Part shown: positions 1,421 through 62,795 of the stretch, piece after piece
Position numbering within the stretch: position 1 is the stretch's first letter
Layout of the letters: every line of letters begins with the position of its first letter
Assembly: GCA_016195265.1 (NCBI GenBank)
Contig: JACPZW010000009.1
Location: forward strand, 1,125-65,124
Origin: Acidobacteriota bacterium
GTDB lineage: Bacteria; Acidobacteriota; Vicinamibacteria; Vicinamibacterales; CAVVIG01
Direction: 5' to 3'
Length of the DNA: 64,000 nt
Notes under the pieces: model-generated
Told to the model about the DNA's origin: nothing
Databases searched by the model: none
Seen by the model: the letters and a program-made list of their open reading frames with translations, nothing else
Position numbers and translations under genes: made by a program

Positions 1421-2917
1421 ATGTCGCAACTCTTCCAGCGGAAACCGATCGCCGCGCTTGTCCCTGCTGGCGACGTCGCCGAGGGCGCGCCAGGGCTGAA
1501 GCGCTCGCTCGGCGCCGGCGATCTGATCATGCTGGCGATCGGCGCCGTGATCGGCGCCGGCATCTTCGGCGCGATCGGCACGGCTGCCGCGGGTCAGCTG
1601 GGGCCCAACGGAGAAGTGATCCGTCAGGGCGCGGGACCGGCGCTGGTATTTTCGTTTCTGCTGCTCGGCGCGGCATGCGCGCTCGCGGGCCTCTGCTACG
1701 CCGAGCTGGCCGCGATGATTCCGCAGGCCGGGAGCGCCTATGCGTACTCGTACGCGACGCTCGGCGAGCTGGTCGCGTGGATCATCGGCTGGGACCTGAT
1801 TCTCGAGTACGCCGTCGGCAACGTCGCCGTCGCGATTTCGTGGGGCGACTACTTCAACACGCTGCTCAGGGGATTCAACGTCTCGCTGCCCGACTGGCTG
1901 ACGACCGGCTATCGCACGGCGCTGCTCAGCTCCGATCCCAAGATTCACGGACTGCTCGCGTCCGCGCCGCACGTCGCGGGCGTGCCGATTCTGGTTCACC
2001 TGCCGGCGGCGGCAATCGTGATGGTGATCACCTGGCTGCTGTCGCGCGGCGCGCGTGAGAGCGCGACGGCCAACAACATCATGGTCGTGATCAAGCTGAT
2101 GGCGCTATCGCTCTTCGTGGTTGTCGGCGCCACGCATCTCAAGAGCGCGAACTACACCCCGTTCGCGCCCAACGGCTTCCGCGGTGTCCATCAGGGCGCG
2201 GCGATCGTGTTCTTCGCCTACATCGGCTTCGACGCGATCTCCACCGCGGCCGAGGAGACGAAGAACCCGCAGCGCAATCTGCCGATCGGCATTCTCGGCG
2301 GTCTCGCGATCTGCACGGCCATTTACGTCATCGTCGGCGGCGTACTGACCGGCATGGTGCCGTACAAGGAGCTCGCGGTCGCCGATCCGCTGGCCCGCGC
2401 GCTCGAGCTGGCCGGCTTCAAGACCGTCGGCTGGATCGTCGCGCTGGGCGCGGCGGTCTCGATGTCCGCGGTGCTGCTGGTTTTCCAGTACGGCCAGCCG
2501 CGCATCTTCTTCGCGATGGCGCGTGACGGCCTGCTCCCGAAATGGGCAGCGAAGCTCCATCCGCGCACGCGCATTCCCTGGGCGACGACGCTCTTCACGG
2601 GCGTGTTCGTGGCAGCGTGGGCCTTGATCGGCGACGCCGGAGAAACCTACGACCTCACGAATATCGGCACGCTGTTCGCGTTCATCCTCGTGAGTATCGG
2701 CGTGCTCGTGCTGCGCTACACCGAACCCGATCGCCCGCGGCCGTTCAAGGTGCCGTTCGTATGGCTGGTCTGCGTGCTGTCTGCGGCCGGATGCCTGTTC
2801 ATCATGTACGGTCTGCCGCAGGCGGCGTGGGAGCGCTTCGGCATCTGGCTCGTGATCGGCCTGCTGCTGTATTTTACCTACGGGTTCACGCACAGCAAGT
2901 TGCGGGTCCGTACGTAG
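1421..2917 (+). CDS. APC-family amino acid permease
   Basis: 498-aa ORF with about 12 hydrophobic segments. The N-terminal LKRSLGAGDLIMLAIGAVIGAGIF motif is typical of the amino acid/polyamine/organocation superfamily. Confidence 0.9.
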   Translation: MSQLFQRKPIAALVPAGDVAEGAPGLKRSLGAGDLIMLAIGAVIGAGIFGAIGTAAAGQLGPNGEVIRQGAGPALVFSFLLLGAACALAGLCYAELAAMIPQAGSAYAYSYATLGELVAWIIGWDLILEYAVGNVAVAISWGDYFNTLLRGFNVSLPDWLTTGYRTALLSSDPKIHGLLASAPHVAGVPILVHLPAAAIVMVITWLLSRGARESATANNIMVVIKLMALSLFVVVGATHLKSANYTPFAPNGFRGVHQGAAIVFFAYIGFDAISTAAEETKNPQRNLPIGILGGLAICTAIYVIVGGVLTGMVPYKELAVADPLARALELAGFKTVGWIVALGAAVSMSAVLLVFQYGQPRIFFAMARDGLLPKWAAKLHPRTRIPWATTLFTGVFVAAWALIGDAGETYDLTNIGTLFAFILVSIGVLVLRYTEPDRPRPFKVPFVWLVCVLSAAGCLFIMYGLPQAAWERFGIWLVIGLLLYFTYGFTHSKLRVRT

Positions 2918-3100
2918 GGCGGGTCCTTTCGGACCCGCTGGTGCGCTCGGTACGTAGGGCGGGTCCTTTCGGACCCGCTGGTGCGCTCGGTGCGTAGGGC
3001 GGGTCCTGTGGACCCGCCTGATCCGCCGGGTCCGAAAGGACCCGGCCTACACAGGTCCAAAAAGGACCCGGCCTACATGGTCCAGAAGGACCCGGCCTGT
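2914..3100. repeat. REP/BIME-like cluster of about six GTAGG-headed GGGTCC...GGACCC hairpin units
   Basis: GTAGG heads sit at 2914, 2954 and 2994, with CCTAC at 3046-3050 and 3072-3076 and a degenerate CCTGT at 3096-3100. There is a 40-nt direct tandem repeat at 2910-2949/2950-2989. The cluster fills the whole intergenic gap. Confidence 0.85.
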
Positions 3101-4108
3101 ATGTCCTCAATGTCCAAGCCCCTTGATGGAGTGCGCGTCCTCGACCTCACGCGTCTGTTGCCTGGCGCGTACGCGACGCTGCTGCTGGCCGATCTCGGCG
3201 CCGACGTCATCAAGATCGAAGACCCGCGCGGCGGCGACGGCATGCGGCATCTGCCGCTGACCGGTGGCGTCAACGTCTACTTCGATCGCCTCAACCGAAA
3301 CAAGCGCAGCGTCACGCTGGATCTCCGGTCGCCCGACGCCGCGCCCGTGCTCGATGCGCTGGTGGCACGCGCCGACGTGCTCGTCGAAAGCTTCCGGCCG
3401 TCGACGGCGCGGCGCCTCGGCGTCGACGCGGCGGCGCTTCGCGCGCGACATCCGCGTCTGATCTGCGCGTCCATTTCGGGCTTCGGGCAGGACGGTCCGT
3501 ACGCCGAGCGCGCGGCCCACGACATCAACTATCAGGCGCTCGCCGGTTTGCTCCGTCCGCCCCGGTTGCCCGGTCCGCTCGTCGGAGACATCGGTTCGGC
3601 GATGACGGCGGCGCTGCGGATCGCCGCCGCCCTGTTCGAGCGATCGCGGACCGGCGCCGGCTGCGCGCTCGATATCTCGATCCATGACGCCGCGCTCGCG
3701 TGGTCGATGTTTCCCACGCCCGTCGATTTCCCGCCGGCCCGCTACAACTTGTACGAGACCGCCGACGGTCAGTGGCTGGCGCTGGGCGCGCTCGAGCACA
3801 AGTTCTTTGCGGGATTCTGCGAGCGGCTGGGCATTCCGGTGACGGCCACGGTCGACGAGGTGCGCGCGGTGATGCGGACGCGCACGCGCGACGCATGGCT
3901 CGCGCATTTTGCCGGCTCGGATGTCTGCCTGACGACCGTCCATTCGCCGGCGCAGGTCGCCGCCGATCCGCAGGTCGTCGCGCGCGGCCTGATGTCGACG
4001 CCAGGCAGGAACGCGCCGGCGCTTAGCGCGGATACAGACGAGATTCTCGAGAACGCGGGCATCGGTGCGCCGGAGCGCGCACGCCTGCGTTCAGCGGGCG
4101 TGATTTGA
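3101..4108 (+). CDS. Family III CoA-transferase (CaiB/BaiF-like)
   Basis: LDGVRVLDLTRLLPGAYATLLLADLGADVIKIEDP is the N-terminal signature of CaiB/BaiF-like transferases. I placed the start at ATG 3101 (alternative 3110), because the 40 aa upstream in track ORF 2981 are encoded by REP repeats. Confidence 0.85.
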   Translation: MSSMSKPLDGVRVLDLTRLLPGAYATLLLADLGADVIKIEDPRGGDGMRHLPLTGGVNVYFDRLNRNKRSVTLDLRSPDAAPVLDALVARADVLVESFRPSTARRLGVDAAALRARHPRLICASISGFGQDGPYAERAAHDINYQALAGLLRPPRLPGPLVGDIGSAMTAALRIAAALFERSRTGAGCALDISIHDAALAWSMFPTPVDFPPARYNLYETADGQWLALGALEHKFFAGFCERLGIPVTATVDEVRAVMRTRTRDAWLAHFAGSDVCLTTVHSPAQVAADPQVVARGLMSTPGRNAPALSADTDEILENAGIGAPERARLRSAGVI

Positions 4109-4135: not shown

Positions 4136-4954
4136 CTACGTTCGAGTGGCCGAGGCCAACACCGCCGGCATCGGCAACACGAACGCATCGTCTGTCGCGT
4201 AGCGTTCCACTCCGCAGCGGACTGCCGCACGAATGGCGGCGAGCGCGTCAGGCATTTGCGCGCGCAGCAAGGCCGCCGTGCGAACACCGCCGCGCGACAC
4301 CGCCTCGAACACGGCGTCGGCGGAGCGGAGACGCCACGCCAACGCCAGCGTGCGCACCTCGATGTTCGAGAAGCCCGCGTGCTCGAGAGTTCTTCCGAAT
4401 TCCTCGGCGGCACTGAAACGGAAGAACGGCGGCCCTTCGGGCAGCGGCACGTTCGGATTGCCGTGCGCCTTCACGGCCTCGAGCACTATTCCGAACCCGA
4501 CGGTCTGCTCCGGCGCCGCCCACACGGTGAGCGCGTAGCGGCCGCCGCGTCGCAGCACTCGATGCGCCTCACCGATCGCGACGTCCGGACGGGCGAGATG
4601 GAGCAGTCCGAAGTTCATGACGACGACGTCGAACCACCCCGCGTCGAACGGCAGCGCCTCGGCGTCGCCCTCGCGAAACGTGAGTGACGGATGCCGTTGT
4701 CGTGCTTTGGCGATCATCGCCGAGGAAAAGTCGAGGCCGACGACGGTCGCGCCGCGCGCCGCGGCGGCGCCGGCGATGAAGCCCGGTCCGGTCGCAACGT
4801 CCAGCAGCCGCGTTCCGGTGGTGACTTGTGCCGCGTTCAGCAACGCTTCAGACGTCTGCGACGTCAGCGCGCCGAACGCGTCGCCGTAGTGTTCCGAGGC
4901 GCGCTCCCAGCCGGCGCGCTCGAAGTCGTGGAAGGCCGAGGAATCCGTTCCCAT
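4136..4954 (-). CDS. Class I SAM-dependent methyltransferase
   Basis: LLDVATGPGFIAGAAAARGATVVGLDFS is motif I, and the sequence has a Methyltransf_11-like core. The start is the ATG at 4954 (MGTDSS). The upstream 60 aa of the track ORF overlap the uvrA start region. Confidence 0.85.
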   Translation of the reverse strand: MGTDSSAFHDFERAGWERASEHYGDAFGALTSQTSEALLNAAQVTTGTRLLDVATGPGFIAGAAAARGATVVGLDFSSAMIAKARQRHPSLTFREGDAEALPFDAGWFDVVVMNFGLLHLARPDVAIGEAHRVLRRGGRYALTVWAAPEQTVGFGIVLEAVKAHGNPNVPLPEGPPFFRFSAAEEFGRTLEHAGFSNIEVRTLALAWRLRSADAVFEAVSRGGVRTAALLRAQMPDALAAIRAAVRCGVERYATDDAFVLPMPAVLASATRT

Positions 4955-4997
4955 GGTGTGCTGAACGATTATAGGCGTGCTACGATTTAGGATTCCC

Positions 4998-7844
<2,847 letters not shown>

Positions 7845-9552: not shown

Positions 9553-9588
9553 TTGGTGGCTGGTGGCTGATGACTGGTGGCTGGTGTG
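9553..9588. repeat. GGTGGCT (CCAGCCA-family) heptad array, single arm
   Basis: The sequence ttggtggctggtggctgatgactggtggctggtgtg begins 7 nt after the stop codon of the upstream gene. Confidence 0.65.
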
Positions 9589-16419: not shown

Positions 16420-16434
16420 TGCTGTAGTCCAGAA

Positions 16435-16497
16435 GTGGCTGGTGTCTGGTGGCTGGTGGCTGGGTCTTTCCAGCCCCTGGTCCCTAGCCTCCAGTCC
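16435..16497. repeat. Imperfect heptad hairpin between rplU and rpmA (GGTGGCT family)
   Basis: The arm gtggctggtgtctggtggctggtggctggg, the loop tcttt and the arm ccagcccctggtccctagcctccagtccc fill almost the whole intercistronic spacer. Confidence 0.65.
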
Positions 16498-18100: not shown

Positions 18101-18322
18101 GGCTGGATACCGCCACTATATCCACACGCTGAGCGGGCGTGCAAGGCAATTGGACCGGTCACAGCCGGTACTTGGAGCAAGCCATATGCCATGGCCTCCA
18201 GCGAAAAACCGCGGGGATTCCGGGCGATCCAACCGCGGCGATTTACCAAACGCGGTCAGTGCTGTCCTCCCGCGTCGCTATAATAAAGGTAGAGGTTGGG
18301 CTCCGCGCCTGTGAGGTGCGGT

Positions 18323-19396
18323 ATGACCGACCCGTCCGACTTCGTCGCGCTGTCGCTGCTCCCCATCTGGTCCTGGCGGGAGGTGGCCGAGCGGCTCCGC
18401 GCCGGCGCCCCGCCGGCCGACATCCTCCGTCAGATCGCCGACCACCGCTGGCCCGACCAGCCGGACAGGATCCAGACCCTGCGCGCGGGCGCGCGCGACG
18501 CGCTCGCGCAGGCGGCCGCGCGCGAGATTGCACCCATCGCGTGGTCCGACGCGTCGTATCCGGTGGCGCTCACGACGATCGTTGATCCGCCGCCGGTGCT
18601 GTGGGCCCGTGGATGCCTCGGGGCGCTGAGCACGCCGTCGGTTGCGATCGTCGGCGCACGCGCGGCGTCGCCGTACGGGCTGACGGTCGCCGAGCATCTC
18701 GCCGCCGATCTTGCGGGATCAGGCGTGACGGTCGTCAGCGGTCTCGCGCGTGGCGTCGACTCGGCCGCGCACCGCGGCGCGCTGGCAGGCCGAGGGATCA
18801 CGATCGCGGTGCTCGGCTGCGGCGCCGACATCGTGTACCCGCCGGAACACGCGTCGCTGTCGCGCGACATCGAGCAGCGCGGCGCGATCGTCAGCGAGCT
18901 CGTGCCGGGAACGCCGCCGCTCCCGCCGTTCTTCCCGCAGCGCAACCGGATCATCAGCGGCCTGTCGCGCGCCGTCGTCGTGATCGAGGCGGGCGAGAAG
19001 AGCGGATCGTTGATCACCGCACGATGCGCGCTCGAGCAGGGACGTGACGTGCTGGCGGTGCCCGGCAACGTCCTGAGCGGCCGGAACCGCGGCGCTCACG
19101 GCCTCTTACGGGACGGTGCAAAGATTGTGGAGTCTGCGGACGATATCTTGGAGGAGCTGGGCATGTCGCAGGGGGACGGGAGTCGGAGTGCGATCGACGG
19201 CCGACTCCCGTGCCCCTCGACAGACCCGATTCTGGCGTGTCTGACGCCAGGTGAACCGAGCAATCTCGACGCAATCGCGGAGCGATCGGGCCTGAGTACT
19301 GCGCGGTTGCTGCCCCGGTTGTTCGAGCTCGAAATGCGCGGCGTCGTCGCGCGTGTCGGCGGCGGCCGGTTCGTCAGGGTTGACAGAACGTGCTAG
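18323..19396 (+). CDS. dprA: DNA-processing protein DprA
   Basis: Motifs include VAIVGARAASPYG, VVSGLARGVDSAAHRGAL and FPQRNRIISGLS. I chose ATG 18323, which follows GAGGTG, over the TTG at 18296. Confidence 0.9.
   Translation: MTDPSDFVALSLLPIWSWREVAERLRAGAPPADILRQIADHRWPDQPDRIQTLRAGARDALAQAAAREIAPIAWSDASYPVALTTIVDPPPVLWARGCLGALSTPSVAIVGARAASPYGLTVAEHLAADLAGSGVTVVSGLARGVDSAAHRGALAGRGITIAVLGCGADIVYPPEHASLSRDIEQRGAIVSELVPGTPPLPPFFPQRNRIISGLSRAVVVIEAGEKSGSLITARCALEQGRDVLAVPGNVLSGRNRGAHGLLRDGAKIVESADDILEELGMSQGDGSRSAIDGRLPCPSTDPILACLTPGEPSNLDAIAERSGLSTARLLPRLFELEMRGVVARVGGGRFVRVDRTC
19172..19216. repeat. Palindromic element inside dprA, with the same 15-mer as in uvrA
   Basis: GGGGACGGGAGTCGG (19172-19186), a 14-nt loop, then CCGACTCCCGTGCCCC (19201-19216). 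It is translated as GDGSRSAIDGRLPCP. Confidence 0.85.
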
Positions 19397-19407
19397 GGTA
19401 AAAAGAA

Positions 19408-19442
19408 AGTGAAAACTGAGAAGTGAGAAGTGAAAAGTGAGA
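19408..19442. repeat. One-armed purine heptad array, (AGTGARA)x5
   Basis: The units agtgaaa actgaga agtgaga agtgaaa agtgaga lie between the dprA stop codon and the topA start. Confidence 0.7.
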
Positions 19443-19457
19443 AGGCGGAAGGAATAA

Positions 19458-27014: not shown

Positions 27015-28427
<1,413 letters not shown>

Positions 28428-28435
28428 CTTCCTAC

Positions 28436-28470
28436 CAGCCCTCAGCCCTCAGCCCTCAGCCCTCAGCCCT
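28436..28470. repeat. Perfect (CAGCCCT)x5 tandem heptad array
   Basis: Five exact units occupy most of the 47-nt gap between the kinase stop codon and the regulator start. Confidence 0.9.
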
Positions 28471-28474
28471 TTGC

Positions 28475-29823: not shown

Positions 29824-31866
29824 TCAAGGCTCCGTGGCGAGGTCGGTCGCGGTTTGCAGTTCTTCCCATTGATGCATTAGGCCGCCGACCTGCCACATCA
29901 GGGCCTGATGACGGTCGATGACCGGCTGCGCCGCCGCGCGATTGTCGTAGAAGCCCGGCGCGGCCATCTCCTGTTCGATCGTCCGGAGCGACGCTTCGCA
30001 CTCGGCGATGCGCGCCTCGATCTCTTCGAGCCGCGTGCGGCGCGCATGCGCCGCGCGATTCTTCTTCCGCGCCTCGGCGTCGACTTTTTTCCGCTCTTCG
30101 CGTGACGGCTTCTGCGGATCGGCAGGAGGTGTAGGCCGGGTCCTTTGGACCCGGCTGCCAGGCGGGTCCGAAAGGACCCGCCCCACGTCTTTTTTCTTCC
30201 CGACCTGCCCCTGCTGCCTCTCCCGCCCCTCCTGCCTCTCCTGCCCGTCCCGCCTATCGTCCCGGTGTTCCTTGTGCCAGAGGAATTCCTTGTAGGTTCC
30301 CGGGAACGCGGTCGCCTCGCCGTGGCCGATCTCGATGATCTTGGTCGCGAGCCGTTCGACGAAATACCGATCGTGCGACACGAAGATCAGCGTCCCGCCG
30401 TAGTCGACCAGCGCGTCGAGCAGGACTTCCTTCGAGTCGAGATCGAGATGGTTCGTCGGCTCGTCGAGCAACAGGGTGTTCGACGGCCGCAGCAGCATGC
30501 GCGCCACGGCGAGGCGGGTGCGTTCGCCGCCGGACAGCACGCGCACGGGCTTGTACACATCGTCGCCCGAGAACAGAAAGCCGCCGAGGATGTTGCGGAT
30601 CATCGGCACCATTTGCAGCGGCGATCCGGAGGAGAGGGTTTCGTAGACGGTCGGGCCCGGATCCAGCCGCGTCGCTTCGTCCTGCGCGAAGTACTGCATG
30701 ACGACGTTGTGGCCCGGCGTGCGCTGGCCGGCGCCGGGCGCTTCCTCGCCGGACAGCATCCGCATCAGCGTCGACTTGCCGACGCCGTTGGGGCCGACGA
30801 GCGCGGTTCGGTCGCCCCGCTCGATGTGCAGGTTGAGATCCTTGAACACGACGAGGTCGCCGTACGCCTTGCGCGCGTGCGTGAGCTCGAGGACGGTCCG
30901 GCCGCTCTTGGCGCAGACCGGGAAATCGAAATGGATCTTCTTGCGCTCGGGCGGCACTTCGATCGGCACGACCTTCTCGAGCATCTTGATCCGGCTCTGC
31001 ACCTGCGACGCCTTGGTCGCCTGATACCGGAACCGGTCGATGAACATCTTCACGCGCGCGATTTCCTCGTCCTGCTCGCGCTTGGCTTTCCGTAGGGTCT
31101 CGATGCGCTCGTGATGCTCGACGAGGTACCCGCTGTAGTTCGTGTGGTAATCGGTCAGCGTGCGCAGCGTCAGATCGGCGATGCGCGTGACGACCGCGTC
31201 GAGGAAGAACCGATCGTGCGACACGAGGATCACCGCGTGCGGGTAGGCGTTGAGGTACTCCTCGAGCCAGTTGCGCGCCTCGAGGTCCAGGTGGTTCGTC
31301 GGCTCGTCGAGGAGGAGCAGGTTCGGCTGGCCCAGCAGCAGTTTGGCGAGCGCGATGCGCATCTGCCAGCCGCCGGAGAAGGTCTCGGTCGGCCGCACGA
31401 GATCACGCTGCGAAAAACCGAGGCCCTGGAGCACGGTGGCGGTCTTCAGTTCGATGCTGTAGCCGTCCCGCACGCGAAACGCGTCTTGCAGATCGCTGTA
31501 GCGGTGCAGCATCGCGTCGTGCTCGGCTTCGGGGATCCCCTGATCGCCGAGCCGCGCCTCGAGCGCGTGCATCTCGGCCTTCATGTCGAGCAGCACGCCG
31601 AACGCGCTCGACGCTTCCTCGAAGACCGTGTGTCCGCTGTGGGTGAGTCCGTCCTGCGGGAGGTACCCGACGGTCAGCGCCGCCGGTTTGAGGATCGCGC
31701 CCGAGTCGGGCTCGTCGAGCCCGGCCATCATCCGCATCAGCGTCGTCTTGCCGGCCCCGTTCGGGCCGCACAGGCCGACGCGCTCGCGATCAGTGATCTG
31801 CCACGTGACGTGATCGAACAGGACGCGATCGCCGAAGGACTTCGTGAGCTCCGAGAGCTGGATCAT
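29824..31866 (-). CDS. ABC-F family ATPase with two ABC domains and a C-terminal coiled coil
   Basis: Walker A motifs GPNGAGKTT and GPNGVGKST, signature motifs LSGGWQMR and LSGGERTR, and no transmembrane segments. The ATG overlaps the upstream stop codon (ATGA). Confidence 0.9.
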   Translation of the reverse strand: MIQLSELTKSFGDRVLFDHVTWQITDRERVGLCGPNGAGKTTLMRMMAGLDEPDSGAILKPAALTVGYLPQDGLTHSGHTVFEEASSAFGVLLDMKAEMHALEARLGDQGIPEAEHDAMLHRYSDLQDAFRVRDGYSIELKTATVLQGLGFSQRDLVRPTETFSGGWQMRIALAKLLLGQPNLLLLDEPTNHLDLEARNWLEEYLNAYPHAVILVSHDRFFLDAVVTRIADLTLRTLTDYHTNYSGYLVEHHERIETLRKAKREQDEEIARVKMFIDRFRYQATKASQVQSRIKMLEKVVPIEVPPERKKIHFDFPVCAKSGRTVLELTHARKAYGDLVVFKDLNLHIERGDRTALVGPNGVGKSTLMRMLSGEEAPGAGQRTPGHNVVMQYFAQDEATRLDPGPTVYETLSSGSPLQMVPMIRNILGGFLFSGDDVYKPVRVLSGGERTRLAVARMLLRPSNTLLLDEPTNHLDLDSKEVLLDALVDYGGTLIFVSHDRYFVERLATKIIEIGHGEATAFPGTYKEFLWHKEHRDDRRDGQERQEGRERQQGQVGKKKDVGRVLSDPPGSRVQRTRPTPPADPQKPSREERKKVDAEARKKNRAAHARRTRLEEIEARIAECEASLRTIEQEMAAPGFYDNRAAAQPVIDRHQALMWQVGGLMHQWEELQTATDLATEP
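30131..30254. repeat. REPIN plus G/C heptad tract inside the ABC-F coding sequence
   Basis: The REPIN is GTAGGCCGGGTCCTTTGGACCCGGC-tgccag-GCGGGTCCGAAAGGACCCGCCCCAC (30131-30186). A CTGCC-rich periodic tract follows at 30205-30254. On the minus strand the whole block is read in frame. Confidence 0.8.
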
Positions 31867-35399: not shown

Positions 35400-36156
35400 G
35401 ATGGTGTGCAGCTACGCGGGCGATCGCGACGACGCGATGATCGCCTATCTCTACGACGATGGCGACGCGGCGGTGCGCGCCGGATTCGAGGCGCACCTGG
35501 CCGCCTGCGCGCGGTGCCGCGAGGAAGTGGACGCGCTGCGCCGCGTGCGCAGTCAGCTCGCGCGCTGGGCTCCGCCTGAAGTGGACTTCATCACCAGCCA
35601 CCAGTCACCGGCCACCAGTCACCGTGCCTGGTGGCACGAGATTCCGGCGTGGGCGCAGGTGGCCGCCGCGCTGCTCGTCCTCGGCGTGTCGGCGGGCATC
35701 GCGAATCTCGACGTGCGGTACGACAGCAACGGCCTCAGCGTGCACACCGGCTGGGCGAAGCCCGCCGGTCCGGCGCCGCGCGCCGCGCAGACGGCCGACG
35801 CCGCGGCGCCGTGGCGCGCGGAGTTGACCGCGCTCGAGCAGCAGCTGCGCGGCGAAATCCGGGCCGTGCCCGCGAGCGCCCCGGCGCCGGTGAACGCGGC
35901 GGCGCCGCGTCCGGCGTCCAGCGACGCGGAGATGCTGCGCCGCGTGCGCGCGCTGCTCGACGAGAGCGAGAAGCGGCAGCAGCGCGAGCTCGCGCTGCGC
36001 GTCGGCGAAGTGCTGCGCGATTTCAACGCCGCGCGGCAGGCGGATTTGCGGACGATCGATCGCAACCTGAACGACGCGCAGAACCGCCTCGGCGTGGAAG
36101 TGCTCAGACAGCGTGAGAACCTGAACATGCTCATGCGTGTATCGCAAAGACAGTAG
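35392..36156 (+). CDS. Anti-sigma factor (zf-HC2 type, single transmembrane segment)
   Basis: HLAACARCREEVDAL is the zinc-finger motif, and the transmembrane segment is WAQVAAALLVLGVSAGIA. The gene is adjacent to, and overlaps, the ECF sigma gene. Confidence 0.8.
   Translation: MTEMVCSYAGDRDDAMIAYLYDDGDAAVRAGFEAHLAACARCREEVDALRRVRSQLARWAPPEVDFITSHQSPATSHRAWWHEIPAWAQVAAALLVLGVSAGIANLDVRYDSNGLSVHTGWAKPAGPAPRAAQTADAAAPWRAELTALEQQLRGEIRAVPASAPAPVNAAAPRPASSDAEMLRRVRALLDESEKRQQRELALRVGEVLRDFNAARQADLRTIDRNLNDAQNRLGVEVLRQRENLNMLMRVSQRQ
35592..35635. repeat. CCAGCCA-family element inside the anti-sigma coding sequence
   Basis: The sequence is caccagccaccagtcaccggccaccagtcacc. GCCACCAG (35611-18) pairs with CTGGTGGC (35628-35). 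It is translated as [14 protein letters not shown]. Confidence 0.7.
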
Positions 36157-42426: not shown

Positions 42427-43200
42427 ATGGATCGCGTCTACCGCATCAGCCATCAGGGCGCCGTGCAGCATGCCGTCGAGCGCGAGGGCGCGCTGCACCG
42501 GATCGGCGGCGACGTGTTCGGCGGTTACACGCTGAGCGAGGCCATTCCCGGCGGCCTGAACGCGGCCGGGCTGCGCGTGCTCGCGCCCGTCACTCCGTCG
42601 AAAATCGTCTGCGTCGGGCTCAACTACAAGGATCACGCCGCTGAGAGCGGCGTGACGCTGCCGGACGAGCCGCTGCTGTTCTTCAAACCGCCGACCGCGG
42701 TCATCGGGCCGGGGGATCGGATCCGGTTGCCGCCCGGCGTCGGACGCGTCGATCACGAAGCGGAGCTGGCGCTCGTCATCGGACGCCGCGCGCACCGCGT
42801 GCCGCGCGCCCGCGCGTGGGAGTACGTGTGCGGCCTGACGTGCCTCAACGACGTCACCGCGCGCGAGATGCAGCACAAGGAGTCGCAGTTCACGCGCTGC
42901 AAGGGATTCGACACGTTCTCGCCCGTCGGGCCGTGCATCGTCACCGGACTCAACGGCGAGCCGCGCAACGTCGAGGCGTGGGTCAACGGCGGGCGACGCC
43001 AGGCGTCGAACACGCGGCATCTGATTTTCCCGATCGACTACCTCATCGAGTACATCTCGTTCGTGATGACGCTCGAGCCCGGCGACATCGTCTCGACGGG
43101 CACGCCCGAAGGCGTTGGACCTATCACCGCCGGCGATACGGTAACGGTGAGCGTGGAAGGCGTCGGCGAGTTGAGCAATCCGGTGATGAATGAACAATGA
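42427..43200 (+). CDS. Fumarylacetoacetate hydrolase-family protein
   Basis: Motifs include KIVCVGLNYKDHA, FFKPPTAVIGPGD, HEAELALVIG and GDIVSTGTPEGVG. Confidence 0.9.
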   Translation: MDRVYRISHQGAVQHAVEREGALHRIGGDVFGGYTLSEAIPGGLNAAGLRVLAPVTPSKIVCVGLNYKDHAAESGVTLPDEPLLFFKPPTAVIGPGDRIRLPPGVGRVDHEAELALVIGRRAHRVPRARAWEYVCGLTCLNDVTAREMQHKESQFTRCKGFDTFSPVGPCIVTGLNGEPRNVEAWVNGGRRQASNTRHLIFPIDYLIEYISFVMTLEPGDIVSTGTPEGVGPITAGDTVTVSVEGVGELSNPVMNEQ

Positions 43201-43293
43201 GAGTTCAGATTTCAGAGTTCAGATTTCAGATTGATTGCAGATCTTGTGACTTGCCCCTCAATCTGAAATCTGAACTCTGAATTCTGAAATCTC
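43201..43293. repeat. Long heptad hairpin, (TTCAGAK)n versus (MTCTGAA)n
   Basis: 43211-43231 is the exact complement of 43261-43281 (21 bp). Pairing extends to about 30 bp with mismatches, around a 29-nt loop. The element starts at the first base after the upstream stop codon. Confidence 0.9.
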
Positions 43294-43960: not shown

Positions 43961-44005
43961 GGGCCGCCTTGGTCGGCCCGAGGGCGGAGCAAGCTCCGCC
44001 CCTAC
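43957..44005. repeat. REP-doublet element, reverse copy of 12592-12644
   Basis: The element is GTAGGGGCCGCCTTGGTCGGCCCGAGGGCGGAGCAAGCTCCGCCCCTAC. Its GTAG head overlaps the fsa TAG stop codon. Confidence 0.8.
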
Positions 44006-44008
44006 GAG

Positions 44009-44060
44009 CCAGCCACCCATCACTAGCCACCCGTCACCAGCCACCAGTCACCAGCCACCA
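44009..44060. repeat. CCAGCCA-family array running up to the next start codon
   Basis: The sequence is ccagccacccatcactagccacccgtcaccagccaccagtcaccagccacca. Confidence 0.7.
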
Positions 44061-44061
44061 C

Positions 44062-45603
44062 ATGGATCCTCTCAAGACTCTCTCAGACCTCGAACGGCGC
44101 GCCGAACTCGGCGGCGGACAGGATCGGCTCGACCGGCAGCGTGAAGGCGGCAAGCTGACCGCGCGCGAGCGCATCGAGCTGCTCTTCGACCCCGGCACGT
44201 TCGAGGAAGTGGACAAGCTCGTCACGCACCGGTGCATCGACTTCGGGATGGATCAACAGATCGTGCCGGGCGACGGCGTCGTCGCCGGCCATGGGTTCAT
44301 CGACGGCCGCCAGGTGTTCGCGTTCGCGCAGGACTTCACCGTCTTCGGCGGATCGCTGTCCGAGACCAACGCGGCGAAGATTGTGAAGATCATGGATCTC
44401 GCGATGCGGCTCGGGGCGCCGCTGGTCGGGCTGAACGATTCAGGCGGCGCGCGCATTCAGGAAGGCGTGCTCTCGCTCGGCGGCTACGCGGACATCTTTC
44501 TCCGCAACACGCTGGCGTCGGGCGTCATCCCGCAGATCTCCGCGATCATGGGGCCGTGCGCCGGGGGAGCGGTGTACTCGCCCGCGATCACCGACTTCAC
44601 GATCATGGTCCGCGACACGAGCTACATGTTCGTGACCGGGCCCGACGTACTAAAGACGGTAACCCATGAAAATGTAAACAAAGACGAGCTCGGTGGCGCC
44701 ATGACGCACAACGAGAAAAGCGGCGTGGCGCACTTCGCCGTGGACGACGACCGCGAGTGCCTGGCGCTGCTGCGCGATCTGCTGTCGTTCATGCCGAGCA
44801 ACAACCTCGACGACCCGCCGCGCGCGTCCACGAGCGACCCGCCGGATCGCGAAGACGAGGCGCTCGACCGGATCGTGCCGCCGTCGCCGAATCAGCCGTA
44901 CGACATGCTCGACGTGATCCACGCCGTCGTGGACGAGGGCTACTTCCTGGAAGTCCACCGGCACTTTGCGAAGAACATCCTCGTCGGGTTCGCCCGGCTC
45001 GACGGCCGGCCGGTCGGCATCGTCGCGAATCAGCCGGCCGTGCTCGCCGGTACGCTGGACATCGACGCGGCCGTGAAGGGCGCCCGCTTCGTGCGCTTCT
45101 GCGACTGTTTCAACATCCCGCTCGTCACGTTCGAGGACGTGCCAGGTTTCCTCCCCGGGACGCAACAGGAGTTCGGCGGCATCATCAGGCACGGCGCAAA
45201 GTTGCTCTTCGCATTCGCCGAAGCGACGGTGCCCAAAGTGACGGTCATCACGCGGAAGGCGTACGGCGGCGCGTACTGCGTGATGTCGAGCAAGCACATC
45301 CGGACCGATTTCAACTACGCCTGGCCGACCGCCGAAATCGCGGTCATGGGCCCGGAGGGCGCCGTAAATATTCTGTATAAGCGCGAGCTCGAAGCGGCGG
45401 CGGACCCGGCACAGGCCCGCGCCCAGAAGATCGAGGAGTTCCGCGAGAAATTCGCCAACCCCTACATCGCGGCCGGCCGCGGCTTTGTCGATGAGGTCAT
45501 TCATCCGCGCGAGACGCGGCGCAAGCTGATCACCGCGCTCAAGAACCTCGAGAACAAGCGCGACAAGAACCCGCCGAAGAAGCACGGCAACATTCCGCTC
45601 TAA
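44062..45603 (+). CDS. pccB: Acyl-CoA carboxylase carboxyltransferase subunit (propionyl-CoA carboxylase beta-like)
   Basis: Motifs include [47 protein letters not shown] and [13 protein letters not shown]. The start is ATG 44062, not track position 43444. Confidence 0.9.
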
Positions 45604-48800: not shown

Positions 48801-49011
48801 GCTCATCAAGAACGTCAAGCTGCAGGGCGCGGCGCGGATCCAACTGCGCGTCGAGGTGTTCAACCTGTTCAACCAGGCGAACCTCGGCCAGCCCGGCCGG
48901 ACGGCGACGGTCGGCAGCACGTCGTTCGGCGTGATTTCCAACACGCGGTTCCCGACGGGCGACTCCGGGTCGGCGAGGCAGATCCAGTTCGCCGCGAAAT
49001 TCCTCTTCTAG
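45877..49011 (+). CDS. TonB-dependent outer-membrane receptor with an N-terminal carboxypeptidase-regulatory-like domain
   Basis: A signal peptide, GTITDTQNAVMPGVTISIKNVATG...GRYTIVA, a plug-like region and the terminal ...FAAKFLF. A GGAGGAG ribosome-binding site is present. Confidence 0.88.
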   Translation: MLRRTSIAAAVFALALLAAGPAYAQSTATLQGTITDTQNAVMPGVTISIKNVATGAERTVVTDAAGQYVAASLAPGRYTIVAHLEGFKDTTTDVVLEVAQIAVVNVKLGLAAIAENVTVTGASPLIETATVSVGQVMAERTVQEIPLNGRHFVDLGPLMPGGSTAPQNAGLSAPLRGQGSFSFMSAGNRETSVNFMINGINLNDLSNSQVTFQPSINTVSEFKVDNSTFSAEYGRNSGAIVNVATRSGSNTLHGEAFDFYRDDKYDSRNYFNPEPAAQSVFNRKQFGVNLGAPIVKNRTFVFGSYEGLRHLQAVDLNSGTLTAAQRAAVTDPLAKRLLTYIPAANDSTGTRVIGSALAPVDIDQYTVDLRNNLKQNDDLHWYYAFQKDLRQEPNAQGNTVAGFGDTRGAHRQVMTVNETHVFSQALVNEARFGFNRIHISFDPNTLVNTADLGINVGQTVFPIALPQIAISGPGLNIGGPAGFPSGREVTTFAAGDTATYLRGNQIIKFGGEFRRVKHNSFNGDPGSFTYPSIAAFQSGFGSAFAITLGDRSFNAYVNAIGGFVQDAISLGSNLKLDLGLRYDYLPSPTETDDKLVAFDPATSTLSRIGTGGFTQVTKNGSDFQPRVGVIWNPTGDGKLAVRGAYAIMINQTNTGYFSGETGNPPLVTPLSAQASGTAASNIKLDNAIAGAAGAASLAPSFTDPNFLPGRMQTWNVNVEREIGTMGVMVGYFGSHGDRQRIPINLNQFTTPGGTVRPFARLAASSSILPGAGLGNITEITSLGWSDYKGLWVTANRRMSQGLQMSASYTLSKSTDTNSYDQTLTAQDSTNLADSEAVSDFDVRHRFSLNASYELPFKGNRWKEGWQVVVVEQAQTGNPLNLVTNITTITGTATVRPDLAGSLPTITPTPNLDATTGAVTSYQWFASNTVCDPRLAGSCTSSTPFALPYSAAGVAHFGSLARNAIIGPGFGDTDLSLIKNVKLQGAARIQLRVEVFNLFNQANLGQPGRTATVGSTSFGVISNTRFPTGDSGSARQIQFAAKFLF

Positions 49012-49015
49012 ATGA

Positions 49016-49073
49016 GTAGGGCGGGTCCTTTGGGACCCGCCTGATCGGGCCGGGTCCGAAAGGACCCGGCCTA
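49016..49073. repeat. REPIN: two inverted GTAGG-headed REP units
   Basis: GTAGGGCGGGTCCTTTGGGACCCGCC-tgatcgg-GCCGGGTCCGAAAGGACCCGGCCTAC. Confidence 0.88.
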
Positions 49074-49082
49074 CAACATCCT

Positions 49083-61154: not shown

Positions 61155-61160
61155 AATGCG

Positions 61161-61306
61161 GTGACTGGTGGCTGGTGGCTGGTGGCTGGTGGACGGCGAA
61201 GAGGGCTGCGGGCTGGAGGGCTGAGGGCCCTGGGAGTCCGAGTCGTTGAGCACGGCGCAAGCGTAACCGATTGTTGTCAGCCCTCAGCCCTCCGCTCTCA
61301 GCCCTT
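61161..61306. repeat. Composite repeat: a GGTGGCT array plus inverted AGGGCTG/CAGCCCT arms
   Basis: The first part is gtgactggtggctggtggctggtggctggtgg (61161-92). Then gagggctgcgggctggagggctgagggccctggg (61201-34) faces cagccctcagccctccgctctcagccctt (61278-306). Confidence 0.8.
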
Positions 61307-61322
61307 GAGTGATAATTACCGC

Positions 61323-62717
<1,395 letters not shown>

Positions 62718-62795
62718 GTGGCTGGTGACTGGTGACTGGTGGCTGGAAATACCGCCATTGAGCCCTCAGCCACTAGCCACCAGCCACTAGCCACC
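62718..62795. repeat. GGTGGCT/CCAGCCA-family hairpin between the regulator stop codon and the kinase start codon
   Basis: The arm ggtggctggtgactggtgactggtggctg (62718-46) faces cagccactagccaccagccactagccacc (62767-95), with about 4 mismatches in 29. Confidence 0.78.

Follow-up and report, generated by a model that had tools for sequence, protein, structure and literature searches.

The locus analysed here, a 64,000-nt stretch from an Acidobacteriota bacterium (contig JACPZW010000009.1 of assembly GCA_016195265.1, positions 1,125 to 65,124; referred to below as the window), raises the question of what kind of DNA places one and the same palindrome inside dprA and uvrA, two unrelated genes, and leaves both open reading frames (ORFs) open. 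A preliminary description of the window had reported one 15-mer in both genes, each time with its reverse complement, and had taken it for a mobile or recombinationally spread element tolerated at surface linkers, not for a trace of shared protein ancestry. The sequence is as described there, and the identities of DprA and UvrA are borne out by domain matches. The dprA hairpin (19172-19215) consists of the left arm GGGGACGGGAGTCGG, a 14-nt loop and the right arm CCGACTCCCGTGCCC, and an outer AG/CT lengthens the pairing to 17 bp (19170-19217; 17-nt arms 19170-19186/19201-19217, 94% complementary). The exact 15-mer also occurs in the window at 6683 and 6704 on the forward strand and at 6732 on the reverse strand. 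When up to two mismatches are allowed, the window holds five matches against 0.57 expected by shuffling, and none of 100 shuffles reached five. The two window sites fold far more strongly than shuffled sequences (-43.3 kcal/mol, z -5.8; -54.2 kcal/mol, z -5.0). As had been stated, the reading frames differ, the translation being GDGSR...RLPCP in dprA and GTGVG...GTGVG...PTPVP in uvrA. According to the analyses presented below, the dprA palindrome is probably one copy of a non-autonomous hairpin repeat family, similar to repetitive extragenic palindromes (REPs) and to the REP doublets known as REPINs, in which the single arm is the unit.

A first scan, with one genome per species and the pattern ACGGGAGTCGG-N(3-33)-CCGACTCCCGT, returned 50 loci, 22 of which lie in one metagenome-assembled genome (MAG; JAIQFX01, 'Terriglobia bacterium SRVP_36'). 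The remaining loci belong to other Acidobacteria MAGs, are unrelated singletons, or represent a different repeat of Verrucomicrobiota. A stricter pattern matched 28 metagenome contigs. The scan loci, the metagenome contigs and syntenic loci fetched via relatives of DprA, UvrA and enolase were pooled into a census of 453 kb, in which 142 perfect arms, 16 arms with one mismatch and 18 with two were counted at 76 sites. Among the perfect hairpins with a stem of at least 13 bp in these loci, 74 of 81 are of the core type. The family occurs in a lineage of soil Acidobacteria, the records of which are labelled Acidobacteria, Terriglobia or Vicinamibacterales. Of the proposal of a mobile or recombinationally spread element, the spread stands (about 76 sites in about 0.45 Mb), and mobility is suggested by the distribution only.

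The repeated unit is a 15-nt arm composed of the core GGGGACGGG and a variable inner part, which reads AGTCGG in variant A, TCTCGG in variant B and TGTATTTTCG in variant C. A compensated double change (AG/CT vs TC/GA) separates variants A and B, and variant B (GGGGACGGGTCTCGG/CCGAGACCCGTCCCC) accounts for most of the arms with two mismatches. Variant C (GGGGACGGGTGTATTTTCG/CGAAAATACACCCGTCCCC), flanked by runs of A and T, was found at the uvrA site of L077, at L057 5456-5501 and at about position 300 of L062. The arms mostly form inverted pairs of one left (L) and one right (R) arm about 11-14 nt apart, with loops of 10-16 nt and a hairpin unit of 41-46 nt; LLR, LRR, LLRR and LRRR architectures also occur, sometimes with extra tandem arms. 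Each arm comprises five codons, is open in all six frames and is translated, depending on frame and strand, as GDGSR, GTGVG or GRES, or as PTPVP, RLPSP or DSRP. A site was counted as strictly intragenic if a frame was open across it and the GC contents at the three codon positions (GC1/GC2/GC3) showed a coding signature in 450 nt on either side. By this test, at least 31 of the 76 sites lie inside coding sequence, with all three frames in use. Many of the 33 'edge' sites are coding too, all dprA sites being among them, and further copies lie at gene ends and between genes.

The host genes include those for enolase, PurL, ThiC, alanine racemase, a Ser/Thr kinase and a DUF1998 helicase. The DUF1998/DEAD-box helicase gene of L004 (2103-4775, minus strand) alone contains seven sites, three of variant A and four of variant B, with a nested LLRR set; in its orthologues in L083 and L031 some of the seven are empty, enabling filled and empty sites to be compared. 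In the kinase, the hairpin directly follows DFGLAK at the start of the activation segment (L057 14382, L067 9612, L074 1710 and L077 10025), and its loops differ among the four related genomes. The encoded peptides are rich in Gly, Pro and Ser, as are many linkers, which could be explained by shared protein ancestry or by convergence of low-complexity linker peptides. Shared ancestry is excluded because the arms are read in all three frames; they are translated from either strand in dozens of unrelated proteins, so that the DNA is identical where the peptides differ by frame, and the repeat is a DNA-level one, as the preliminary description had argued. The excess over shuffled sequence given above speaks against chance, and the recovery of the same hairpins from independent assemblies (NCBI MAGs, JGI, ENA and Logan) against an assembly artefact. 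Taken together, ancestry, convergence, chance and artefact retain a negligible probability.

In DprA, the domain DNA_processg_A spans residues 76-279 and DprA_WH residues 310-357, and the hairpin peptide GDGSRSAIDGRLPCP (residues 293-307) lies between them. The longest dprA ORF begins at a TTG at 18296 and encodes 366 aa, and an identical public protein, P0001, has 357 aa, corresponding to a start at 18323. The AlphaFold model of DprA has a mean confidence (pLDDT) of 87, and its sole segment below 50 (residues 285-299 in the numbering of the 357-aa protein) falls on the hairpin peptide and is modelled without secondary structure between the two domains. In UvrA, the element accounts for 18 extra residues in a short link, so that the suggestion of tolerated surface linkers agrees with both genes. 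The DprA linker, measured from 'ILEELGM' to 'DP(I/V)L', is hypervariable and 10-40 residues long in all 120 relatives examined. It is also present in the R. palustris DprA structure 3MAJ, which aligns only loosely here. Residues homologous to the hairpin peptide in DprA orthologues from other phyla had been named beforehand as the finding that would speak against an insert; the linker residues of 3MAJ and of the 120 relatives are non-homologous to it.

A comparison of DprA relatives upholds the lineage specificity that had been supposed. The arms are confined to a small subclade of about six relatives with 80-87% identity, in all of which the loop measures 14 nt, and they are absent from L052, the closest relative of the window (90% identity). 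The element-free linker of L052 reads STADG (..gac ggt) where the dprA loop of the window codes for SAIDG. The dprA block is restricted to a lineage; it is probably not a 45-nt insert, since apparently no more than two 15-nt arms have been added and the loop resembles resident linker DNA. Across genomes, the dprA arms are identical at 27-30 of 30 positions, compared with 62-79% of third codon positions and 3-7 of 14 loop positions. In the copy of L055, a G>A change in one arm is paired with C>T in the other. A faster-than-neutral turnover of the dprA loops was considered and dropped, since unconstrained linker DNA with small indels explains the data equally well. The same linker holds another palindrome in L087 (2361-2406), CGGGGTCAGACCCC-18 nt-GGGGTCTGACCCCG, and 'GVRPP..GLTP', the translation of this type of palindrome, was found in about 17 of the 120 relatives. 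Because other relatives carry a different palindrome there, the DprA linker is a hotspot for several hairpin families. The features of both window copies are compiled in the following table.

Features of the dprA and uvrA hairpins and of their host genes in the window
Feature	Positions	Strand	Remarks
dprA ORF	18296..19396	+	hairpin between Rossmann-like core and C-terminal winged helix
dprA left arm GGGGACGGGAGTCGG	19172..19186	+	exact match; GDGSR; starts at codon position 1
dprA loop AGTGCGATCGACGG, 14 nt	19187..19200	+	codes SAIDG; probably resident linker DNA
dprA right arm CCGACTCCCGTGCCC	19201..19215	+	one C>G mismatch to canonical arm; within RLPCP
uvrA ORF	4977..7844	+	element in short link from end of first ABC module to start of second
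uvrA outer left arm	6683..6697	+	exact 15-mer; GTGVG frame, starts at codon position 3
uvrA spacer TGATGC, 6 nt, between tandem left arms	6698..6703	+	arm and spacer make 21 nt, or 7 codons
uvrA inner left arm	6704..6718	+	exact 15-mer; GTGVG frame, starts at codon position 3
uvrA loop GACGCCGCTCGCT, 13 nt	6719..6731	+	codes TPLA; length of the normal 3-5-residue UvrA link
uvrA right arm CCGACTCCCGTCCCC	6732..6746	+	PTPVP frame; GA...TC flanks extend stem

The uvrA copy had been taken for a plain palindrome, which needs correction: the hairpin at 6683-6746 contains two left arms and one right arm. The link of UvrA from 'GTPxxLx' to 'SLTG' has 21 residues in the window, compared with 3-4 in about 110 of the 120 homologues, which come from many phyla, and a gap of 18 residues appears against the solved structures 3UX8 and 2R6F. 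When the arms and the spacer (51 nt) are removed, the window sequence becomes ME-TPLA-SL, and the empty sites of close relatives read ME-DPE-S, ME-GGTAS-S and ME-KESGE-S. In L077 (minus strand, about 4498-4605), variant C stands exactly where the window holds variant A, within flanks that are 92% identical. Removal of the arms only from the L077 site leaves SQEAS, so that variants A and C both return to a link of 4-5 residues.

The pairing of the arms was followed in enolase, where four genomes hold a block of equal length that forms perfect hairpins with different stems (CGGGGACGGGAGTCGG, CGGGGACGGAGGTCG and CGGGGCCAGACTTCG). In the alignment of these genomes, 95.6% of cells are paired, and 6 of the 17 pairs have changed on both sides. 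The covariation score is 0.43, whereas shuffles give 0.15 (none of 500 attains the observed value) and slid partners do not exceed 0.12; perfect pairing has been kept here by compensatory change. The notion that most filled enolases carry decayed arms proved wrong, the DNA of two of them giving perfect stems of different sequence. In L088 and L089 the enolase site has a private stem, with no further copy within about 20 kb, which suggests that homogenisation between sites is active in some lineages only. Pairing also reaches beyond the arms. In 73% and 82% of 33 copies, respectively, the two bases next to the arms are complementary; the third base is so in 24%, the level expected at random. 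These outer bases differ between copies (AA/TT, GA/TC, AG/CT, GC/GC and others). No direct target-site duplications were found, the flanks of the 33 copies being inverted complements and no host bases being duplicated in the filled/empty pairs.

Perfect stems of this kind might be seen as a structural element under selection, the stem serving the host as a translational pause, as a binding site for an RNase or another protein, or as a signal in replication or recombination. The compensatory changes at the enolase site, the private stem of L088 and L089, the dprA arms that are far more conserved than synonymous sites, and the persistence of sites across genomes of 80-90% protein identity would all be consistent with this explanation. 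However, the same stem recurs in every frame across dozens of unrelated genes, as well as at gene ends and in intergenic DNA, and close relatives lack the element at the same sites (L052 in dprA, L084-L086 in uvrA, and 41 enolases). In addition, close relatives carry different arm variants at the same uvrA site, template switching produces the same covariation without selection (PMC8794818), and Rfam returned no family over threshold anywhere in the window. A selected function of the stem is therefore regarded as improbable.

To what extent the hairpin travels as a whole can be judged from sites that are filled in one genome and empty in another. The length differences between filled and empty orthologous sites are 24, 24, 27, 30 and 30 nt, for hairpins 42-43 nt long. 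In enolase, the distance from 'PLYRHI' to 'PVPMMN' is 11 residues in all 41 element-free relatives and 20-22 in 48 filled ones. Hairpins inside ORFs often measure 41, 43 or 44 nt, which are not multiples of three, and the loop lengths of coding copies cover all classes modulo 3; the frame is kept nevertheless, because two arms of always 15 nt preserve it. At one helicase site, the L031 loop cacGCCGGGATCATCGgac matches the sequence gaaGCCGGGAAGTCATCGcgt of the empty L083 site, with none of 300 loop shuffles scoring as well. The inner loop tacGCCGTCAATG of L004 likewise matches this empty L083 site. In the affine-gap alignment of the helicase site the gaps fall on the arms, and weaker hints come from helicase site 3562, where GGAGCG is shared in the same frame, and from the dprA loop of the window (SAIDG, against STADG in L052). 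Solved structures were also tried as an insert-free baseline; this works for UvrA, whereas the loops of enolase, ThiC, PurL and alanine racemase vary between phyla and so mislead, and the enolase case was settled only by close relatives. Loops that start with AG/CGAG or end with CT were about twice as frequent as expected when judged by eye, from which no conclusion is drawn. On these comparisons, the sequence between the arms would usually be the gene's own DNA, and the creation of a site would add about 30 nt, not the whole hairpin.

The same data bear on ordinary unit insertion, in the manner of MITEs (miniature inverted-repeat transposable elements) or Rickettsia palindromic elements (RPEs), in which the whole 42-45-nt hairpin would transpose in one piece and unconstrained loops would then diverge fast. 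Near-identical loops between unrelated flanks at L046 5857/6023, at L058 684/991 and at L059:735 and the L068 enolase are in favour of it, and they imply that a loop may also move together with its arms or be converted from copy to copy. Many loops in one soil lineage share TCTGTA/TACAGA beside one arm, and the enolase gap against the E. faecalis structure amounts to 14 residues, the whole hairpin. However, close enolase relatives give a difference of 9 to 11 residues, not 14, and the nucleotide differences at other sites, the homology between the empty L083 site and the loops of L031 and L004, the absence of direct target-site duplications and the frequency of hairpins in ORFs that are not multiples of three all argue against insertion of the unit, which we consider unlikely.

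For the arm-based family favoured here, the following course of events is the most likely one. An arm pair would add ten codons of a peptide rich in Gly, Thr, Pro, Ser and Arg and would survive wherever a protein has a flexible surface loop; copies would stand in the interdomain link of DprA and the inter-module link of UvrA because stop-free arm pairs survive in such loops. The two arms of a site may be kept identical by hairpin-templated copying, that is, by template switching during replication, and this copying would also take one to three flanking bases, giving the complementary flanks. It has been reported that template switching creates and maintains perfect hairpins, extends inverted repeats and mimics compensatory evolution (PMC8794818, PMC7202029). 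Since it cannot explain one 15-mer at about 70 sites of one genome, a spread or homogenisation between sites is required in addition, and the arms may be spread or re-homogenised by a process still active in some genomes. As to how a site arises, we tentatively propose that two inverted 15-nt copies are written around about 13 nt of resident DNA, adding exactly ten codons without target-site duplication, and are later re-homogenised genome-wide where the machinery is active. A selected stretch of the gene would thereby become the loop of a perfect hairpin. No unit would be cut and pasted or copied and pasted in this process, which we hold to be possible rather than probable. If true, it would be a previously undescribed kind of event, an 'arm-pair' mode of mobile DNA pre-adapted to life inside genes. 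Four mechanisms were considered on paper, namely DDE-type strand transfer with separate ends, Cas1-like integration, flap addition at staggered breaks and site-specific recombination, and were rejected because each predicts direct target duplications or single arms segregating at replication.

Several points weigh against this interpretation. Template switching accounts for the symmetry within a site, not for the identity among about 70 sites. A stepwise model predicts solo arms, and these are rare (about three sites); no insertion event was observed. No transposase, RAYT (REP-associated tyrosine transposase) or other candidate enzyme turned up, although no systematic search for one was made. 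Because the scans demanded exact arms, the census over-represents perfect copies, and the near-invariance of the arms is in part a product of the search; this bias does not affect the series of dprA, uvrA and enolase, which were reached through the proteins. The homology between loop and empty site is clear at one site, and in five other comparisons shuffles score equally, so that the claim that only arms are added rests mainly on the length differences. Moreover, an 'empty' orthologue does not represent an ancestor, a variation of 1-3 codons is usual in these loops, and the shared loops at unrelated loci mentioned above belong here too.

Two further sites in the collected loci are worth describing. 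At L089 15273-15329, a gene called methylmalonyl-CoA mutase contains a 13-nt loop closed by a perfect 22-bp stem, AGGGGGTCGGGAGTCTTTTTCT; the stem has GGGAGTC in common with the main family, so that intragenic hairpins may form a wider superfamily. At 9507-9521 of L082 (the same sequence as L031), a single perfect arm, CCGACTCCCGTCCCC, aligns to ctgattcgcggcccc in the orthologous gene of L004 with 11 of 15 positions identical and no length change. Either an arm has decayed in place, or a similar host sequence may have been converted into an arm.

If the anatomy outlined here holds, selfish or neutral DNA can colonise essential, conserved proteins such as UvrA, DprA, enolase, PurL and ThiC nearly free of cost, because the arms are five codons long, stop-free in six frames and translated into linker-like peptides. 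The family would then offer a natural data set on the birth and uniformity of REP-like repeats, on template switching versus selection in 'compensatory' stem evolution, and on the surface loops of core enzymes that tolerate insertions of ten residues. On the practical side, the hairpins will disturb the alignment of orthologues and the calling of genes close to starts and stops, and will interfere with PCR and assembly in these genomes.

The window also contains repeats of other kinds. Intergenic runs with a period of 7 nt were found at 9555-9586, 16434-16465, 19397-19445, 28428-28471, 35589-35623, 43199-43293, 44004-44066, 61160-61306 and 62717-62795. The types of run include (GTGAGAA/GTGAAAA)n between dprA and topA, (GGTGGCT)n with its complement, and (TCAGCCC)n. 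In the window, (TTCAGAG/T)n forms a 36-nt inverted pair, and a similar (AGAAGGC)n hairpin is present at 2968-3029 of L047. For long inverted matches (71-79% identical) between 27314-27931 and 61819-62436, the gene context in syntenic loci suggests paralogous sigma-54 activator/AAA genes, and hence ordinary paralogy.

No paper describing this hairpin family in Vicinamibacteria was found in the literature. The closest known systems are the REPs, units of 20-40 bp with a stem of 5-13 bp and a loop of 2-20 nt (PMC3733652). Di Nocera, De Gregorio and Rocco (2013; PMC3733652) described GTAG and CGTC REPs in frame inside genes, many of them genes of replication and repair, including uvrA of Thioalkalivibrio and Opitutus terrae, uvrB of R. 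conorii, recBCD and polA. They proposed that such inserts are neutral and fall in flexible linkers or loops; some of the inverted dimers have variable spacers, and the CGTC REPs have no known transposase (PMC3733652). The present family resembles REPs in consisting of short dispersed palindromes, often in inverted pairs and in frame inside known genes, and its loops of 10-16 nt fit the REP range. It differs in the size of the unit (41-46 nt) and of the stem (15-17 bp). The GTAG or CGTC end tag is absent, GACG/CGTC occurring only inside the stem. REPs are predominantly extragenic, as a rule directly downstream of ORFs, with a small intragenic minority, whereas at least 40% of the present sites are intragenic. 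Furthermore, a single arm is not a hairpin in this family, and the spacer, or loop, is apparently resident gene DNA.

The window has genuine REPs as well, of the form GTAG-GGCGGGTCC-TTTC-GGACCCGC. Three forward and then three inverted copies lie at 2914-3101, and further ones at 30133-30188 and 49009-49075. The cluster at 2914-3101 starts at the stop codon of the ORF 1421..2917, is extragenic and represents a separate family. Two quite different palindromic families therefore coexist in this genome, and a RAYT is possibly present. On these grounds, the hairpin could itself be a canonical REP or REPIN of another GTAG or CGTC type, mobilised by a RAYT. The dispersal of palindromes in inverted pairs and the documented intragenic REPs, uvrA included, agree with this possibility. 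However, neither end of the hairpin carries a tag and the flanks are variable, the single arm is not palindromic, the stem exceeds the reported length, and the family is mostly intragenic where the GTAG REPs of the window lie just after a stop codon. Moreover, the gene tables of the annotated loci, a small sample of about 120 kb, contain no RAYT (Y1/HUH transposase) gene. A canonical REP thus seems a rather doubtful explanation.

REPINs are extragenic elements of about 100 nt in which each REP is an imperfect palindrome, and they depend on a RAYT gene present in single copy (Bertels and Rainey 2011, PMC3116915). The present family shares with them a hairpin built from a short conserved sequence and its inverted copy, many copies per genome, vertical inheritance and long persistence, and its singlets resemble remnants. 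In contrast to a REP, self-complementarity within the arm GGGGACGGGAGTCGG is limited to 3 bp (GAC..GTC), and the spacer is part of a REPIN whereas the loops of this family differ at nearly every site. As in MITEs, inverted arms are present; unlike in MITEs, a direct target-site duplication is absent. One IS4-like DDE gene was found in L053 and is not flanked by arms.

RPEs (Ogata et al. 2000) reportedly measure about 100-150 bp, add 30-50 residues as one block and have a conserved interior. Both families are palindromic repeats that stand in frame in many unrelated, often essential genes with the ORFs kept open, and are expressed as extra surface peptide segments read in different frames. The present family differs in phylum and base composition, and what it repeats is 2 x 15 nt within a hairpin of 41-46 nt, with a net addition of about 30 nt and an interior that is not conserved. 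Hairpins generated by template switching (Monttinen and Loytynoja 2022, PMC8794818; PMC7202029) likewise have perfect stems with multi-base 'compensatory' changes in both arms, stems that reach into neighbouring bases and loops of local sequence. However, template switching acts locally, and the same 15-mer is found here at about 70 dispersed sites of one genome. Finally, the PARCELs (palindromic amphipathic repeat coding elements; PMC2996958) are also palindromic coding repeats inside genes of unrelated function; they are longer, code for a defined amphipathic module and are under selection as proteins, whereas the arms of the present family are read in any frame. Intragenic palindromic repeats are thus already known as a kind; this family is new, and its geometry is unusual.

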